In this document: one piece after another, positions 49,062 to 57,951 of the stretch
Layout of the letters: every line of letters starts with the position of its first letter
Numbering within the stretch: the first letter of the stretch is position 1
NCBI GenBank assembly: GCA_002897655.1
Contig: BDTJ01000044.1
Location: 1,605 to 65,604 of the forward strand
Reading direction: 5' to 3'
Length of the DNA stretch: 64,000 nucleotides
Source of the DNA: an archaeon BMS3Abin17
GTDB taxonomy: Archaea > Nanobdellota > Nanobdellia > Pacearchaeales > GW2011-AR1
Notes under the pieces: generated by a model
The model's database searches: none
Told to the model about the DNA's origin: nothing
Seen by the model: the letters and a program-made list of their open reading frames with translations, nothing else
Position numbers and translations under genes: made by a program

Positions 49062-52000
49062 TTAAACCTTCAAAGTAATTATCTTTGAGACTCCGTCATG
49101 CATGCTTACACCATAAAGATTTGAGGCATTTGTAATCACTTCGTCATTGTGGGTTATTACTATATACTGGCCTTTTTGCATGTATTTTCTGAGAAGGCCT
49201 GCAAGTCTCTCAGAATTTCTTTTATCCAATGCTGCATCAATCTCATCAAGTATGTAAAAACAATACGGGCTGTATTCCTGAATTGCAAAGATAAGGGATA
49301 ATGCCACAATAGTCTGTTCTCCTCCTGAAAGAGAGGTAACATCAAAGTATTTTCCATGCCCTGTCTTGACAATTATATTCACCCCCCCTTCAAAAGGGTC
49401 TTTTCTATTTTCCAATTCTAATGAAACCCGCCCCTTTGTGCTTAATTGAGAGAAATTCCTTGAGAAGGTCTCATTTAATGAATCAAGGGTTTTAAAGAAA
49501 GTCTTTTTCTTTTTAATATCAATCTCATGAATAATCTTCATGATTCCTTCTTTTTCCTTGTTGATTATCTCTACTTTTTCTTTTATCAAGTCATATTCTT
49601 TTTTTATTGAATCATAGACTTCTAATGAACGCAGATTAACGGTTCCAATTTTTGATAATATTTCTTGTGTTCTTTCCAGCTTATGAATAAGAGACTCTTT
49701 TGTTGCTTTTATTATCTCAACATTTGGATATCCCAGCATATCTGTCTCTAAATTCTCAATTGCTGCATCAATCTTTGCTTTTTCTATTTTTAATAAATTA
49801 GTATCCTGCTCAAAATTATGAATTGAATTTTGCCTGGTCAAAATAAAAGACTCAAAATCCCTTATTTTCTTCTGCAGGCCTTCTCTTTCAGAGATTAGTT
49901 TTTGGAATTTTCTGGTAAGGGCCTCTTCCTTGCCTTTTTTATCTTCTAAAAAACTCTCTTTTTCTTCAATACTCTCCTTTAGGTCAGAAACATCCTCTTT
50001 GATATCTTCTTCATCACTAGTTAATTGTTTTAAAGCTGCTTTTGAACGGTCTAATTCTCTTTTCTTAAATGAAGTCTCTGAATCCAAGGTCTCTTTGCTT
50101 CTCATAGATATCTCCTGAATCTCTATTCTTGCAGTCTCATATTTTTGCTCCAGATTAGAATTCCTGTCAGATTTGCTTTCAAGAGATTTTCTTCTTTTTT
50201 CTAATTCAATCATCTCTTTCTTAGAGTCCTCAATTTTTTCATGCAACATTTTTATCTGCTCTTTTTTATCATTGATTCCGAATATTTTAATCTGGTCAGA
50301 CTTTCTACTAGATATCTCTGAATCTATTTCATCTATCTTTTTGTTTAAGATTGCTTTGCTATTGCCTATTTGCTTAAACTCTTTTTCTGATTCTTCTATT
50401 TGCTTTTTAAGATGGTTTATCCTTGGATTAACTTCTTTATGAATTGAAGAAATATGGTCTTTAGTTATCTTGCTTTTGCACAATGGACAAATGTCCATTT
50501 TTGAGATATTTTCCCTAATTTTATTTTGCTTGTCTATTTCATAGCTATTTGTGTAAGATATTTTTTCAAGCTCTTTTTCTCTTTTTTCCAAGTTTTCAAT
50601 CTTTTGTTTATTATTAGATAAGGAAACTTTAAGAGAGTCTAATTTGCCTGAATCTGTGTTTTTGTCAAATAATTCCCTTGTAAGAACCTCTATTTGCTTG
50701 ATTAAATAATCAGACTCTGTTTTATAACTCTGCAAAAGAGAGTTTTTGTCCTCCATTCTCTCTTTAATTGATTTTAATTCTGACTTAGTCATATAAAACT
50801 CTTTTCTTTGCTTTTCCAGATTATCAAGCTCTTGTTTTTTCTCTTCTATGTCTTTTTGCTTTTTTGAAGCAGATGATTTAGAACTCTGCAGTTCTTTTAT
50901 TTCTGATTCTAAATCCCTTATTTTTTGAGCCAGATCTATTCTTTGATTTTCAACTTCAGAGAGCTTTCTTTCAGAATTATCCAACCTTACATTTAAACCA
51001 GCTAATTCTGCTCTTAAATTAGCTATTTCCTGGTTCAATTTTTCCTGCTCTATTCCAGTAGATTTTTGAATATTTTGGTTTATTGAACTTATTTTTGATT
51101 CAAAGCTTTCAATAGTAACCCTTGTATTTGTTATTATTTTTTTTATCTTATTTATCTCATTATCTTTTTCCAGAATTCGCTTGTCCATCTTTTCTCTTTC
51201 TCTTTTTCTATTTGTTAAATCAGAATGAATTATGCTTGCTCTGTATCTTTTGGCATCTTTTTCAAGTTTCTTAAATCTCAAGGCCTCCTGCCTTTCTCTT
51301 TCAAGATTATTCAAATATGCTGTTCTCTCCCTTAGTATTGATGAAACTTCTTTTAATTTATCCCCTGTTCTTTCTAATTCTTTCAGAGACTTTTGCTTTC
51401 TTACCTCATATATTGAGATTCCAGAAACCTCTTCTATTATTTTTCTTCTCTCTTCTGTATGCATTCTTACAAAATTCTGAATCTCTCCCTGCAAGATAAT
51501 ATTAAATCCATTAGGGTCTATTCCTGCCTGTGCCAATAAGGTCAACACCTCTTGTCTTGTCTTTGTCTCATTATTTATCCTGTAGATACTCTGCCCGTTT
51601 TTTCTTACAATCCTCTTTATTGAAATCTCATTATTATCTATAGAAAAAATCTTATCAGAGTTATCAAAAACAATCTCAACTGATGCTTCTTTTGCAGGAG
51701 ACAATGCCTTTGTTCCCAGAAATATCAGGTTTTTTGCTTTTGCTGCCCTCATTGACTTGATTGAGAGTCTTCCCAATACAAAACACAAAGCATCTGTTAT
51801 GTTTGAATTATGGACAAAGATATTATTAGCCAAAAAGTTGTGATGTTCATCTACACATAAATCATAAACCCACCCTTCTCCATTTATCTCGCTTATATCT
51901 GTTATTTCGTCCCAGAAAATATCAGAATACGCCAAAAAATTTAATTTTTTTATTAATTCAGAGTTTCCTTTAAACAATTGTTTTGACAATAACTGAAGAC

Positions 52001-53516
52001 CATTTCTTGAAGGAAAGCATTGATTATAACAGTATGCCTCAAGGAGGGGAAATTGCATCTTTGTATGTTTTACATTAATCTTTAATTCCTTAGTTATGTC
52101 TTTAACTAAGTTGTTGATTCCTATTAAATCTGTATTCGGATTGCTCTTCTTTTTTAAGTAATCTTTTATCCTCTGTCTTTTAACTTGGTGAATTAATTGA
52201 ATACTGTCGTCAAATATTCTGAAGTTATCAACCCCAGTAATTATGATTGTTTTGTATTTTCCTGTGAATCCTGATGATTTTATTCCCTTAATTTGGTCTC
52301 TTGTTGAAAACAGAATTCCTAATCTTAGCAGGCAAGTCTCTATGCCTTGTGCTAATGGTGCGCTTTTAGTTGTAATTTCTATGGAACTTTTAGAAACATA
52401 TCCATCCCCGCAGTAAAGTCCGTTAAGTAATTCCGATACCTCCTTACCTGATGAATGTTTTAATAAGATATTTGATATTTTTTTCCCTGAAGTATTAGAT
52501 GCCATCCCAAGTTTTGACAATATCTTTTTTAGTGGTTCAGAATAAATTATTACATCCCAGCAATTAGGCTTGTATTCCCTGACTAAAGGTTTCTTGTTAA
52601 ATAACTTTTCAACCAGAGTTATATAATCATCCACAATATTTTTATCCCCATTAGTAAACCATATCTGACTTGATTCAGCCAGCCTGCCTTCAGCTAAAAG
52701 ATAACCAAAAAACCTTGAAAATTCCGGAGAATTTGTAAAATTAAAACTTGTTTTTTTCCCATTAGAAATCAACTCATTAATCAAATTGGTTATCTCTAAA
52801 TCTGATAAATTCGCGTATCTGAGTATTCTAATCAAATAACAAAAATTAATTGATTGCTTATCCAATAATCCCTTAATCACATAATAAGAGATGCCTATTT
52901 TCTCTGCTAATTGCTTCCAGATTAGATTATCTTTTATTGACCTCAAAATTAAAGAATATTCCTCTTTATAGGGCACATAAATCCCATCATTTTCACTAAT
53001 CAAACTTAAAAGTTCTGTAAAGGTTTTATCTTTGGTCTCAAAATTTAATGCCCTCGGGACAGCAATCCTAACTCCCTGCTTTAATTCGTCAGCTCTTGCT
53101 TCTACAATCTGATTGTTTTTTAATATGAATAAAGGGTGATATTTTGTTGTTTTTACTGCTCTTCCAGACCTGGTTTTTATTGAAAGAATCTTCTCAGGGG
53201 ATGTTCTTTTAACAAATGATTTTACCTTTGTTCTTTCTGTTTTAAGGGTCTTTAAATTCAGGCTAATGACTTCTAAACCATCCCCTGGGATTAAAAAACC
53301 ATCTTCTGTTTTTACTGCTTTGTTCAATCTGGAATTAATTATATTGTCTATTCTCTCACTAGTGCCATCTCCAAGAGTTACAATAGAATCTCCGGTCAGG
53401 CATTTCCCACTTCCATTAGGGCCAAGAACTACATTTATCCCCTGATTAAAAGGTATTTCTGTCTTTCTGATAAAGCTTTTAAATCCGTGCATCACCAGTT
53501 TTTTGATATATGGCAT
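49062..53516 (-). CDS. rad50: Rad50/SbcC-family ATPase with zinc hook, interrupted by an intein in the Walker A motif
   Basis: GPNGSGK|C...HN|SNITDALCFVLG. CPLC zinc hook in mid coiled-coil. LSGGE signature, Walker B (ILDEIDAALD) and H-loop. The extein is 952 aa. Confidence 0.8.
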   Translation of the reverse strand: MPYIKKLVMHGFKSFIRKTEIPFNQGINVVLGPNGSGKCLTGDSIVTLGDGTSERIDNIINSRLNKAVKTEDGFLIPGDGLEVISLNLKTLKTERTKVKSFVKRTSPEKILSIKTRSGRAVKTTKYHPLFILKNNQIVEARADELKQGVRIAVPRALNFETKDKTFTELLSLISENDGIYVPYKEEYSLILRSIKDNLIWKQLAEKIGISYYVIKGLLDKQSINFCYLIRILRYANLSDLEITNLINELISNGKKTSFNFTNSPEFSRFFGYLLAEGRLAESSQIWFTNGDKNIVDDYITLVEKLFNKKPLVREYKPNCWDVIIYSEPLKKILSKLGMASNTSGKKISNILLKHSSGKEVSELLNGLYCGDGYVSKSSIEITTKSAPLAQGIETCLLRLGILFSTRDQIKGIKSSGFTGKYKTIIITGVDNFRIFDDSIQLIHQVKRQRIKDYLKKKSNPNTDLIGINNLVKDITKELKINVKHTKMQFPLLEAYCYNQCFPSRNGLQLLSKQLFKGNSELIKKLNFLAYSDIFWDEITDISEINGEGWVYDLCVDEHHNFLANNIFVHNSNITDALCFVLGRLSIKSMRAAKAKNLIFLGTKALSPAKEASVEIVFDNSDKIFSIDNNEISIKRIVRKNGQSIYRINNETKTRQEVLTLLAQAGIDPNGFNIILQGEIQNFVRMHTEERRKIIEEVSGISIYEVRKQKSLKELERTGDKLKEVSSILRERTAYLNNLERERQEALRFKKLEKDAKRYRASIIHSDLTNRKREREKMDKRILEKDNEINKIKKIITNTRVTIESFESKISSINQNIQKSTGIEQEKLNQEIANLRAELAGLNVRLDNSERKLSEVENQRIDLAQKIRDLESEIKELQSSKSSASKKQKDIEEKKQELDNLEKQRKEFYMTKSELKSIKERMEDKNSLLQSYKTESDYLIKQIEVLTRELFDKNTDSGKLDSLKVSLSNNKQKIENLEKREKELEKISYTNSYEIDKQNKIRENISKMDICPLCKSKITKDHISSIHKEVNPRINHLKKQIEESEKEFKQIGNSKAILNKKIDEIDSEISSRKSDQIKIFGINDKKEQIKMLHEKIEDSKKEMIELEKRRKSLESKSDRNSNLEQKYETARIEIQEISMRSKETLDSETSFKKRELDRSKAALKQLTSDEEDIKEDVSDLKESIEEKESFLEDKKGKEEALTRKFQKLISEREGLQKKIRDFESFILTRQNSIHNFEQDTNLLKIEKAKIDAAIENLETDMLGYPNVEIIKATKESLIHKLERTQEILSKIGTVNLRSLEVYDSIKKEYDLIKEKVEIINKEKEGIMKIIHEIDIKKKKTFFKTLDSLNETFSRNFSQLSTKGRVSLELENRKDPFEGGVNIIVKTGHGKYFDVTSLSGGEQTIVALSLIFAIQEYSPYCFYILDEIDAALDKRNSERLAGLLRKYMQKGQYIVITHNDEVITNASNLYGVSMHDGVSKIITLKV
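51807..53402 (-). other. intein (532 aa) with LAGLIDADG homing-endonuclease domain, inserted between K38 and S of the Rad50 P-loop
   Basis: Begins with Cys and ends with HN followed by Ser. Two LAGLIDADG motifs (FFGYLLAEGRL, LNGLYCGDGYV). The flanks reconstitute GPNGSGKSN. Confidence 0.75.
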
Positions 53517-53665: not shown

Positions 53666-54366
53666 TTAAAACTTCAACTTCCTCTGCTCTAATTTCTCAA
53701 ATGCCCTCTTCCATGTGCTCCAGGTCCTCCTGAATATTCCCTCTTTTTGATGTTTATGCGCATATTTCTCAAGGAACTTAATTGTGGCTGGGTCAGAAGT
53801 ATATCCAGATCCAATCTCATCCCCATATCTTTCTTTAATCTTGTCCATTTCTCTTTCTCTAACACTTTTTGCCAAAATTGATGCAGCAGAAACAGCAAGG
53901 TGATTTTTATCTGCCTTGTGTTCACAGGAAATTTCTAAATTTGAAAGATTCTTTATTTTTGTCTTTAAGAAATCCTGCCACTTTGAAATTGTTGGGGAAG
54001 GGCAATCAACAATTACCTTTACTTTTTTATACCCTTTATTGATTTTGTTTATTATCTTGGCACACATAATTGCTTCTAACTCATTTAGTTTTGTGCCATT
54101 AACACTTGTGCTATCTATTTCATTTGGATATACTTTTATTATCTCAAAGGTTTCTGCTTTTTCTTTGATTATTTTTTCCAAGAATTCTCTTCTTTTCTGA
54201 GTTAATTGCTTACTGTCCCTTACACCAAGTCTTTTGAATTCTTTTTCAACTTTTTCATCAATCAAACACCCTGCCAAAACCATTGGGCCAATGACTGGAC
54301 CTTAAGGCGAACAATAATATAATAAAAATTATACTACAATTCTCTACCTGCGTCGTCAATGCCCAA
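53666..54366 (-). pseudogene. rnhB: RNase HII gene disrupted by a 41-nt stop-containing insertion (54302-54342) that separates the catalytic GIDDAGR segment (TTG start at 54366) from the rest (GPVIGPMVLAG...)
   Basis: Removing nt 54302-54342 joins ...GIDDAGR to GPVIGPM... in frame. The body has the RNase HII motifs DSKQL and AVSAASILAK. Confidence 0.5.
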
Positions 54367-54368
54367 GA

Positions 54369-55403
54369 TTAAATTGCAAGAATGCTCTTTTTTACTGGCA
54401 ATTTTATCCATTTTCCATCTTTTTTATTCCTCCTTATTAAATTTAGTTTCTCAAGTTCTTTGAGCCTTCTAAATGAAGCCTTCCAACAAACATTAAATTT
54501 CTTTGCAAGCTCTGCAGTCTGTTTAGGTCTATCTAAGAAAAGTAGATATCCCTTTTTAAGCTTTGATATAATAATGAGATTCTTATCATTTGTCCAATAA
54601 TCAATGCTTCCCACTCTAAAATTATGTACTCTCCTTTGTTTTTTTAATAAAACCAGTACATCCTGTGTCCTTGCAAATGATCTTTTAAATTTATTTGATA
54701 AATCTCGCGTTGTTAAGGGTTTTTCTAAAATAGTATAAATTTTCTTAATTAAATAATGTTTTTCATAATGTTCTTGTTTAAAATCATTATAAACTCTCCA
54801 AAATTTCTCTTTTTTTAAGGGATGTAAGTCTGCTAATTTTAATTTTGCAAAAACATCCCAATTAAATTTCTTAGTAATTACATAATTTCTATTTCCTGTC
54901 TCAAATGAAAAACTTATATTTAAAGAATTCAATAAATCATCTATAAACTTTTTTCTTTCTTTCTGAGATACTCTTAGAACACGGACACTTTTTCTGCCAA
55001 CATGTACATTACCTTCTCCAGCAAAAAATCCTTTTAATATATTTGGGAAGAATTCTTTCTTATCCAAAAAAAATTTTACAATCTTCTTCCACTCCTTAAC
55101 CATCTCAACTGAAGCAAATCTAAGAATAAAGAAAGGTTTTATTGCCTTTTTATGAACATAATACTTTACTACACAGTTTTTATAATGTATTTTAACCTTT
55201 TTTTTGTCTTTAGAGTAAACATATATTCTAGGATTATAATTATGTTTGTAAAATATCTTATTAATTGTTCTATAAAATAAATTTACTAAATCCCAACAAT
55301 TATTTGTGAATGTAATCTCTGATTTAGTTTTGTTATCTCCTTCTGCTAACCATAAACCAACACATTTTGCGATATTTTCATTTGGGGCTAATAACCTGTC
55401 CAT
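54369..55403 (-). CDS. free-standing double-motif LAGLIDADG endonuclease-like protein with C-terminal winged-helix domain
   Basis: VGLWLAEGD and LKGFFAGEGNV motifs. C-terminal HTH-like ELAKKFNVCWKASFRRLKELEKLNLIRR. Its stop abuts the rnhB start. Confidence 0.55.
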   Translation of the reverse strand: MDRLLAPNENIAKCVGLWLAEGDNKTKSEITFTNNCWDLVNLFYRTINKIFYKHNYNPRIYVYSKDKKKVKIHYKNCVVKYYVHKKAIKPFFILRFASVEMVKEWKKIVKFFLDKKEFFPNILKGFFAGEGNVHVGRKSVRVLRVSQKERKKFIDDLLNSLNISFSFETGNRNYVITKKFNWDVFAKLKLADLHPLKKEKFWRVYNDFKQEHYEKHYLIKKIYTILEKPLTTRDLSNKFKRSFARTQDVLVLLKKQRRVHNFRVGSIDYWTNDKNLIIISKLKKGYLLFLDRPKQTAELAKKFNVCWKASFRRLKELEKLNLIRRNKKDGKWIKLPVKKSILAI

Positions 55404-55540
55404 AGCAAGATTTACAATCTCTCTTTCTTTTTAAAGTGTTGCATTACTTTTATAGTTATAATCTGGTTCACATAATTTTTTAATCAGTTAAATTTAAAAG
55501 CCTTCCACATCTTTCAATTAAAGTACTCCGAATATAACAT

Positions 55541-55652
55541 AGCAGGGTGGAGCAGATTTGCGTAAATTCTAACCGATTTTGCAAAGCTCAATCTGGAGTG
55601 CTCGTCGGGCCCATAACCCGGAGGTCGTGTGGTTCAAATCCCACCCCTGCTA
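55541..55652 (+). tRNA. tRNA with CAT anticodon (Met/Ile2-type) carrying a ~36-nt intron at a non-canonical position (D-arm region)
   Basis: Acceptor AGCAGGG/CCCTGCT. Anticodon stem-loop TCGGG-CCCATAA-CCCGG. T-loop GGTTCAAATCC. The 112-nt span minus 76 nt mature length leaves ~36 nt extra between the D-stem halves GAGC...GCTC. Confidence 0.5.
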
Positions 55653-57749: not shown

Positions 57750-57951
57750 GCCTCGATCGCATAATGGTATTGCACGAGATTGCTAATGCCCAACTTTCCT
57801 TACCGGGAGAACGAAAGTTCTCAGGGCCCAAAGAACCATGGGTTCTTAGGGGGAAAGAAAGTTCGGCGCTCAAAGAACCACATCAGGCTCTGCGAGCATA
57901 GTAAACATCTCGATCCTTCGGGATGCGCAGGTTCGATTCCTGCTCGAGGCG
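57750..57951 (+). tRNA. tRNA-Ser (anticodon GCT) with a 121-nt intron at the canonical 37/38 position
   Basis: Acceptor GCCTCGA/TCGAGGC plus discriminator G. Anticodon stem CGAGA/TCTCG split by the intron (57786-57906). Long variable arm ATCCTTCGGGATG. T-arm GCAGG-TTCGATT-CCTGC. Confidence 0.7.

Follow-up and report, generated by a model that had tools for sequence, protein, structure and literature searches.

How does an archaeon obtain RNase HII from a gene whose reading frame breaks off within the codons of the catalytic motif? The question is raised by rnhB, the RNase HII gene, in a 64,000-nt stretch of DNA from archaeon BMS3Abin17 (Nanobdellota, Pacearchaeales; GenBank assembly GCA_002897655.1, contig BDTJ01000044.1, positions 1,605 to 65,604), the whole of which we refer to as the window. 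On the minus strand of the window, 41 nt interrupt the rnhB frame directly 3′ of the DDAGR codons: the exon-1 frame reads TTG(54366) GGC ATT GAC GAC GCA GGT AGA, followed by GAA TTG TAG, the last of these being a stop, and the frame resumes 41 nt on with GGT CCA GTC ATT GGC CCA ATG... and runs to a stop at 53666. Here, we propose, with a probability of roughly 0.88, that the 41 nt are an archaeal bulge-helix-bulge (BHB) intron of the rnhB pre-mRNA.

The interrupted rnhB gene and its relatives

A first-pass annotation had described rnhB as split after DDAGR by an AT-rich, 41-nt insertion that carries an in-frame stop and whose removal (54302-54342) restores the gene, and the description holds throughout. 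Deletion of 54342-54302 yields ...GIDDAGRGPVIGPMVLAGCL..., and the joined product covers profile positions 1-198 of 199 of Pfam RNase_HII (PF01351; E=9.8e-48), that is, its full length including the N-terminal D-[DE]-A-G-R-G motif, and is 71-84% identical to full-length relatives. The G+C content of the insert is 19.5%, compared with 34% for the gene and 32% for the window. The edges of the insert can slide by one base either way (AGAG / AAGG) with the product unchanged, and the BHB rule places the intron at 54343-54303, giving the same product as deletion of 54342-54302. In this register, exon 1 (54344-54411, minus strand) extends from ATG 54411 (or TTG 54366) to ...GCA GGT AG, coding for MDKIASKKEHSCNLILGIDDAG and ending two bases into the Arg codon; the intron (54303-54343, minus strand), AGAAUUGUAGUAUAAUUUUUAUUAUAUUAUUGUUCGCCUUA, contains the in-frame UAG; and exon 2 (53666-54302, minus strand; dN/dS 0.05 against the related locus L022) supplies the third base of the Arg codon and then GGT CCA GTC... 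through the stop. The in-frame ATG at 54411 is an alternative to TTG 54366 and adds an N-terminal extension of 16 residues (MDKIASKKEHSCNLIL-GIDD); both the ATG and the extension are conserved in L008, L109 and L111, and translation presumably starts at one or the other of the two codons. Public annotation and gene callers render rnhB of intron-bearing genomes as a truncated protein of 201-205 residues (205 in the window).

Could the interruption be an error of sequencing or assembly, as the first-pass annotation had allowed? A short, A+T-rich, hairpin-forming insert is, indeed, the kind of sequence that assemblers sometimes mishandle. However, the truncated 205-residue open reading frame (ORF) is on record from ten contigs, and in all six that we read, which come from five samples and from different pipelines (‘Candidatus Pacearchaeota’; ENA, Logan and NCBI assemblies), a 151-nt region including the insert is identical. 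Furthermore, unrelated projects have yielded 76 distinct sequences with a homologous insert. We thus reject an artefact, the probability of which is negligible.

The comparison with orthologous rnhB genes that the first-pass annotation had proposed places the insert at the same site in some relatives and not in others. In L008-L010, a relative from the Hainich groundwater with 82% protein identity, a homologous insert, also of 41 nt, occupies this site, and the two exon changes in L008, A to G and U to C, both leave the central helix described below paired. L011 and L012 lack exactly the 41 nt and have the uninterrupted sequence ...GCA GGA AGA GGT CCT.... Presence of the insert is thus polymorphic among relatives.

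Alternatively, the insertion could have disabled rnhB, recently or in the distant past, and left a pseudogene, as the in-frame stop, the insert length that is not a multiple of three and the truncated 205-residue ORF returned by gene callers would all be taken to indicate. Against this stands the fact that the insert has been kept at the same site in lineages that are far apart: the window and the Hainich lineage differ to saturation at synonymous sites (pS 0.71), with a dN/dS of 0.05, which implies strong purifying selection on rnhB while it carried the insert; between intron-bearing lineages, dN/dS is 0.05-0.11. Moreover, exon 2 is open in 76/76 insert-bearing genes, to the normal stop in 65 and cut only by contig ends in the other 11, and the insert covaries with exon wobble bases, a pattern that a dead gene would not maintain. 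Inactivation, which had been entertained in its recent form in the first-pass annotation, is therefore very improbable.

Bulge-helix-bulge structure, covariation and proposed splicing

The minimum-free-energy (MFE) fold of 54375-54270 contains, in the frame-restoring register, a motif of a 3-nt bulge, a 4-bp helix and a 3-nt bulge (z = -3.4), the structure that the first-pass annotation had suggested looking for at the junctions. Two bulges on opposite strands, AGA and UAA, flank the helix AGGU/GCCU; in the MFE fold, the 3′ strand shows an unpaired UAAG stretch, which becomes the 3-nt bulge UAA if the pair C54350-G54301 forms. The 5′ strand of the central helix, AGGU (54346-54349, minus strand, as for all elements of the motif), comprises the wobble base of the Ala codon and the Gly codon, whereas the 3′ strand, GCCU (54305-54308), lies inside the intron. 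Cuts at AG↓A in the 5′ bulge (54343-54345; predicted between 54344 and 54343) and at UA↓A in the 3′ bulge (54302-54304; predicted between 54303 and 54302) remove the 41 nt from 54343 to 54303, rebuild the Arg codon and restore DDAGRGP. The introns of cbf5 mRNA are likewise cut between the second and third bulge bases (PMC2738675). The inner helix h′ and its loop (54309-54342) consist of GAAU/GUUC followed by a 10-bp A-U hairpin and a UUUU loop, and the outer, exon-exon pairing h spans 54292-54358, with the closing pair C54350-G54301 and UGACGAC / GUC(ca)GUCA. A BHB motif in the required register with the fixed 41-nt spacing is found at 33/127,836 positions of the window (2.6e-4). There was no Rfam family match at the intron locus, and a self-splicing group I or group II intron is rejected because 41 nt are far too short for a ribozyme core and because of the absence of such a match.

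The strongest evidence comes from comparison across archaea. We scanned a metagenome collection and a collection of species-representative genomes for the flanking codons only, that is, D-[DE]-A-G-R, a gap of 25-55 nt and G-P-x-[IV]-G-P-M-V, leaving the insert unspecified. The scan returned 66 + 30 = 96 loci, which reduce to 76 distinct sequences with inserts of 24-45 nt, all at the same site. Carriers are labelled as Woesearchaeota, Pacearchaeota, Nanoarchaeia, Nanoarchaeota, Micrarchaeota, Promethearchaeota (Asgard), Nitrososphaeria and Geothermarchaeales, so that all labelled carriers belong to DPANN, Asgard or Thermoproteota, although the codon pattern is restrictive and other groups may be missed. 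The count of 76 is a lower bound because three intron-bearing loci, L109, L117 and L119, escaped the pattern through a Lys codon (AA↓A), GPVLGP, or GPL in place of GPM.

The sequences were picked by exon codons only, and the register for the pairing tests was fixed by the reading frame alone. The central helix has all four pairs in 72/76 sequences and three of the four in the remaining 4/76, in 29 different helix combinations, and covariation links each of the two exon wobble bases to its partner in the intron, with six pair types for the Ala codon and five for the Gly codon. In the gapless alignment of 75 sequences, 93.2% of the cells are paired, compared with 64.9% in shuffles (0/500 reach the observed value); the covariation score is 0.769 versus 0.207 in shuffles; cells changed on both sides number 242 against 72 expected; and when the partner is slid by 1-3 columns, pairing falls to only 29-52%. 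The compensatory changes that a BHB intron calls for are thus present. The inner helix h′ has at least three consecutive pairs in 66/76 sequences, and 6/6 tested pairs covary. Where the 5′ bulge is AGU or AGC, as in 13 sequences, any cut other than the canonical one would turn Arg into Ser. An in-frame stop occurs in 75/76 inserts and the remaining insert shifts the frame; hence, none of them is a translated insertion. The intron length is exactly 30 nt in 20 of the inserts. Stops in the exon-1 frame could have been selected to end unspliced translation or could be a by-product of A+U richness.

How would the intron be removed? After transcription, the exon-1 AGGU would pair with the intron GCCU into the 4-bp helix, flanked by the two 3-nt bulges, the A-U-rich inner hairpin and the exon-exon pairing. 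The tRNA-splicing endonuclease (EndA) would then cut after the second base of each bulge, and an RtcB-type ligase would join the exons, the intron probably being circularised. The predicted spliced junction is ...GCAGGUAG↓AGGUCC... (the arrow marks the point of joining), and the mature mRNA would encode the whole RNase HII, with restoration of the D-D-A-G-R-G-P motif that the intron interrupts inside the Arg codon. Unspliced RNA would yield only a 25-residue peptide ending at the intron UAG or an N-terminally truncated protein devoid of DDAGR, so that splicing would be needed for active RNase HII. The organism very probably possesses tRNA-type splicing: a tRNA gene at 57750-57951 of the window (plus strand), missed by ARAGORN, matches the whole Rfam tRNA model yet extends over 202 nt and, therefore, contains a 123-nt intron in the anticodon-loop region. 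According to a 2018 survey, loop insertions in EndA are linked to a broader substrate range in DPANN, Asgard and Thermoproteota (PMC5829648).

Two further explanations leave the RNA unspliced. The insert could stay in the mRNA and be skipped by the ribosome through programmed bypassing, as in phage T4 gene 60, or through another kind of recoding, which corresponds to the programmed event listed in the first-pass annotation. The stop soon after the break and the hairpin in the skipped segment are reminiscent of gene 60, but no matched take-off and landing codons give ...AGRGP..., and a GGU-to-GGU hop would delete Arg-Gly. Bypassing also fits poorly with inserts that vary from 24 to 45 nt and offers no reason why the covarying pairs should be those of the BHB helix, including the last exon bases. 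We consider it extremely improbable. Equally, rnhB could be a split gene, its two parts giving rise to separate polypeptides that then assemble. Split genes are a known feature of DPANN archaea, and the downstream ORF has its own ATG; nevertheless, an N-terminal piece of 8-25 residues with DDAGR is an implausible subunit, and the covariation between exon 1 and the insert would go unexplained, which leaves a split gene with next to no probability. Of the four explanations offered in the first-pass annotation, only the BHB intron, borne out by structure, comparison and covariation, is retained.

Several observations weigh against a spliced BHB intron. First, we infer cleavage and ligation of the rnhB RNA in vivo from sequence. 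Second, energy minimisation alone recovers the central helix in only 26/76 sequences, so that the case rests on register and covariation. Third, the outer helix is weak: its closing C-G pair is present in 76/76 but is invariant, and is followed by a G-G mismatch and by irregular, lineage-specific pairing; since the register of h differs between lineages, this helix is weakly supported and the motif is relaxed on the 3′ side, which may require an endonuclease of broad specificity. Finally, the distance between start codon and intron is 22 to 67 nt, so that a translating ribosome could compete with folding.

The similarity between introns tracks that between the rnhB genes themselves, being 76-78% at protein identity of at least 70% and at background (~0.52) once rnhB identity drops below ~60%. 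This pattern fits vertical descent with rapid divergence, plus loss; an ancient origin and repeated gain at a predisposed site are equally compatible with these data. Recent horizontal transfer of the intron between distant hosts was considered and discarded, as similarity falls to background and no convincing case was found. A window-wide search for other coding introns, combining a loose BHB motif with ORF joining, gave 836 matches and was abandoned as non-specific.

The upstream LAGLIDADG gene and its possible role in the spread of the intron

Directly upstream of rnhB, with its stop 2 nt before the rnhB TTG, the window encodes a 344-aa LAGLIDADG-type protein with C-terminal winged-helix domains (54369-55403, minus strand), the proposed partner of the intron. 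Its two LAGLIDADG motifs, GLWLAEG and GFFAGEG, with their acidic residues, are invariant in 31 sequences, and the structural model (pLDDT 92) has a single-chain LAGLIDADG fold, with bI3 maturase, E-DreI, I-DmoI and I-Tsp061I as the best PDB matches and two extra winged-helix domains in the C-terminal part. The match to Pfam LAGLIDADG_3 scores 21.6 bits (E=2.7e-4), below the curated cut-off of 22.5, and several homologues carry a precomputed assignment to this family (PF14528). The family has 411 detectable members of ~340 aa; a search of viral contigs gave no match to it. In the first-pass annotation, the locus was called a hot spot of selfish elements on account of a neighbouring LAGLIDADG gene and an intein-bearing rad50. 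With respect to the former, this was an understatement: the gene is not a mere neighbour but lies directly upstream of rnhB in 6/6 contexts sampled through the protein. By contrast, the second neighbour was misidentified. The 1484-aa gene downstream of rnhB (49062-53516, minus strand) encodes an SMC protein (Pfam SMC_N, with an SMC_hinge match in a homologue); its P-loop region does contain an intein, which has a LAGLIDADG domain of its own, and the Hainich relative (L008/L009) appears to lack this intein.

The adjacency of the intron to the LAGLIDADG gene suggests a nuclease-plus-intron mobile cassette. Specifically, the nuclease gene, a replacement exon 1 and the BHB intron could form a single mobile unit that spreads by collaborative homing. 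The nuclease would cut intronless rnhB within the stretch coding for D-[DE]-A-G-R-G-P, and the tiny intron, removed by the tRNA-splicing enzyme of the host, would split the target and protect the carrier. Such a cassette would be bounded at ≤ ~1.2 kb, given that a tRNA-like element that abuts rnhB in L012 is found upstream of the LAGLIDADG gene in the window. In the comparison of L008, which has the intron and a remnant of the nuclease gene, with L011, which has neither, the sequences are ~98.5% identical over >900 nt downstream of the intron site, whereas exon 1 is only 71% identical and the upstream regions are unrelated, so that homology breaks exactly at the intron site. The intron is also enriched beside the LAGLIDADG gene (3/6 versus 2/119 close relatives; Fisher p = 6e-4, uncorrected for phylogeny); among the 120 closest rnhB relatives, ORF lengths point to an interruption in only 2-3. 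Yet, among the six sampled contexts, the intron-bearing loci L109, L117 and L119 are matched by three with an intact nuclease gene beside an intronless rnhB (L111, L114 and L118), a finding that runs against a cassette, and these three nuclease-bearing intronless alleles are too few for inferring the nuclease target from junction sequences. On balance, we regard the cassette as a tentative and rather unlikely proposition.

Alternatively, the 41 nt would still be a BHB intron, but the link to the LAGLIDADG gene would reflect shared ancestry only, the protein being a domesticated partner or regulator in the rnhB operon rather than a homing nuclease, with no role in the spread of the intron. The family is as conserved as rnhB (mean identity 46% versus 42%; Spearman 0.46), and three of the six sampled loci have the gene next to an intronless rnhB. 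Among the 62 distinct intron-bearing loci with enough upstream DNA (the window counted), 11 have a full copy of the gene, two a copy cut by the contig end and five remnants, whereas nothing of it is detectable in 43; Asgard and Thermoproteota carriers are without the gene. On the other side, the two catalytic LAGLIDADG motifs never vary, some copies are truncated or internally deleted and the gene is missing from close relatives, to which the enrichment of the intron and the L008/L011 break have to be added. We put domestication at somewhat under even odds.

If the cassette were real, it would provide a mechanism by which ORF-less introns enter and persist in archaeal protein-coding genes and could explain why a single rnhB codon serves as an intron site in DPANN, Asgard and Thermoproteota alike. 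A partnership of this kind would, to our knowledge, be without precedent among archaeal BHB introns.

Further features of the region deserve mention. The LAGLIDADG ORF always ends 14-23 nt before the rnhB Asp codons or overlaps them. Remnants of the gene usually keep the 3′ end: decayed copies retain the last 100-330 nt (L008, L020, L090, L098 and L104), and the copy with an internal deletion, L098 6398-6724, is a single open stretch in which profile positions 272-343 follow directly on 7-36, with the frame kept. In the window, the tail of the gene (54405-54450, minus strand) includes a TATA-like TTTAATAA that starts 30 nt before ATG 54411; with such a sequence kept upstream of the ATG, the tail may supply a promoter and a leaderless start for rnhB. 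A larger intron enclosing the LAGLIDADG ORF was rejected because 55404-55531 contains neither a second exon-1-like coding copy nor a matching inner helix.

Rearrangements seem to be concentrated at the 5′ end of rnhB. Between L008 (2431-2776) and L011 (1-166), 41 nt further upstream are identical but inverted. At 55532-55652 of the window (plus strand), there is a probable initiator-type tRNA(CAU) gene, parsed by eye and detected by neither ARAGORN nor Rfam, with an A1-U72 acceptor pair, a GGG/CCC anticodon stem and a D-arm region enlarged by ~35 nt. The element is also found in L008, in the opposite orientation, and its 3′ part shares 93% identity with the L012 element. Both Asgard carriers (Promethearchaeota; L092 670-1713 and L103 725-1726) share one upstream neighbour, a protein of ~340 aa that contains HTH_3 and is not a LAGLIDADG protein. 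In the woesearchaeotal L086, the intron-bearing rnhB is abutted, on the opposite strand and ~20 nt upstream of the intron site, by an ORF of 281 aa that is LAGLIDADG-like but distinct (motifs HLCGDGC and YSHDEGY; subthreshold Pfam match, E=1e-3) and may represent a second nuclease family at the same place.

Relation to known introns

The literature covered by our searches names cbf5 as the only case of a BHB intron within a coding sequence and HVO_1309 as the case in a 5′ untranslated region (UTR) (PMC2738675; PMC7714728, 2020), and papers from 2018 and 2025 cite only the cbf5 work. We found no paper linking RNase HII or rnhB with a BHB intron in the literature that we searched, which leaves out most subscription journals, so that an earlier report is possible. 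Within the literature searched, rnhB would be the second protein-coding host gene of a BHB intron. Natural variants of the rnhB intron number in the dozens and extend over three archaeal superphyla, among them the Asgard archaea, which are related to eukaryotes, such that splicing of mRNA by the tRNA machinery would not be a crenarchaeal oddity, and the variants constitute a ready covariation data set for deriving substrate rules. They also expose a systematic annotation error, namely the truncated rnhB calls, and the LAGLIDADG link makes the gain and spread of ORF-less archaeal introns testable.

The closest known counterpart is the intron of the cbf5 pre-mRNA in Crenarchaeota, a BHB intron in a coding sequence (Watanabe 2002; Yokobori 2009, PMC2738675). 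Both introns are free of ORFs, lie inside the coding sequence within a codon of a catalytic motif and are of similar size (16-44 bp in cbf5 and 24-45 nt in rnhB); in both, cutting after the second base of each bulge is known or predicted, relaxed motifs are common and the distribution among relatives is patchy, reflecting gain and loss. The differences are equally clear. The host gene encodes RNase HII rather than a pseudouridine synthase, and the rnhB intron is spread over DPANN, Asgard and Thermoproteota, whereas that of cbf5 is confined to two crenarchaeal orders. Unlike the cbf5 intron, the rnhB intron lies 22-67 nt from the start codon and, among DPANN carriers, is frequently linked to an adjacent LAGLIDADG gene, and its splicing is deduced from sequence. 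The BHB intron of Haloferax volcanii HVO_1309 (PMC7714728) is also an mRNA substrate of the tRNA-splicing endonuclease; however, it sits in the 5′ UTR and interrupts no reading frame, whereas the rnhB intron does.

The archaeal rRNA introns that encode I-DmoI and I-Tsp061I resemble the rnhB locus in combining a BHB-type intron with a LAGLIDADG enzyme, and the 344-aa protein is predicted to fold like I-DmoI (TM ~0.6, target-normalised) and I-Tsp061I. In the rRNA introns, the nuclease gene lies inside the intron; at rnhB, by contrast, it is free-standing, upstream of exon 1 and extended by two winged-helix domains, and the intron is a mere 41 nt.

Finally, the arrangement recalls collaborative homing in phages, where a free-standing nuclease gene likewise adjoins a gene with an ORF-less intron, as for F-CphI with the psbA group I intron and mobE with I-TevIII; there, the intron blocks self-cleavage and the nuclease mobilises the intron (PMC6083498, PMC2790892). 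The break in homology between L008 and L011 exactly at the intron site would fit a cassette of this kind. Unlike in the phage system, intact nuclease genes also occur beside intronless rnhB. Furthermore, the phage introns are self-splicing, whereas the rnhB intron, in its archaeal hosts, is predicted to be cut by a protein enzyme of the host.

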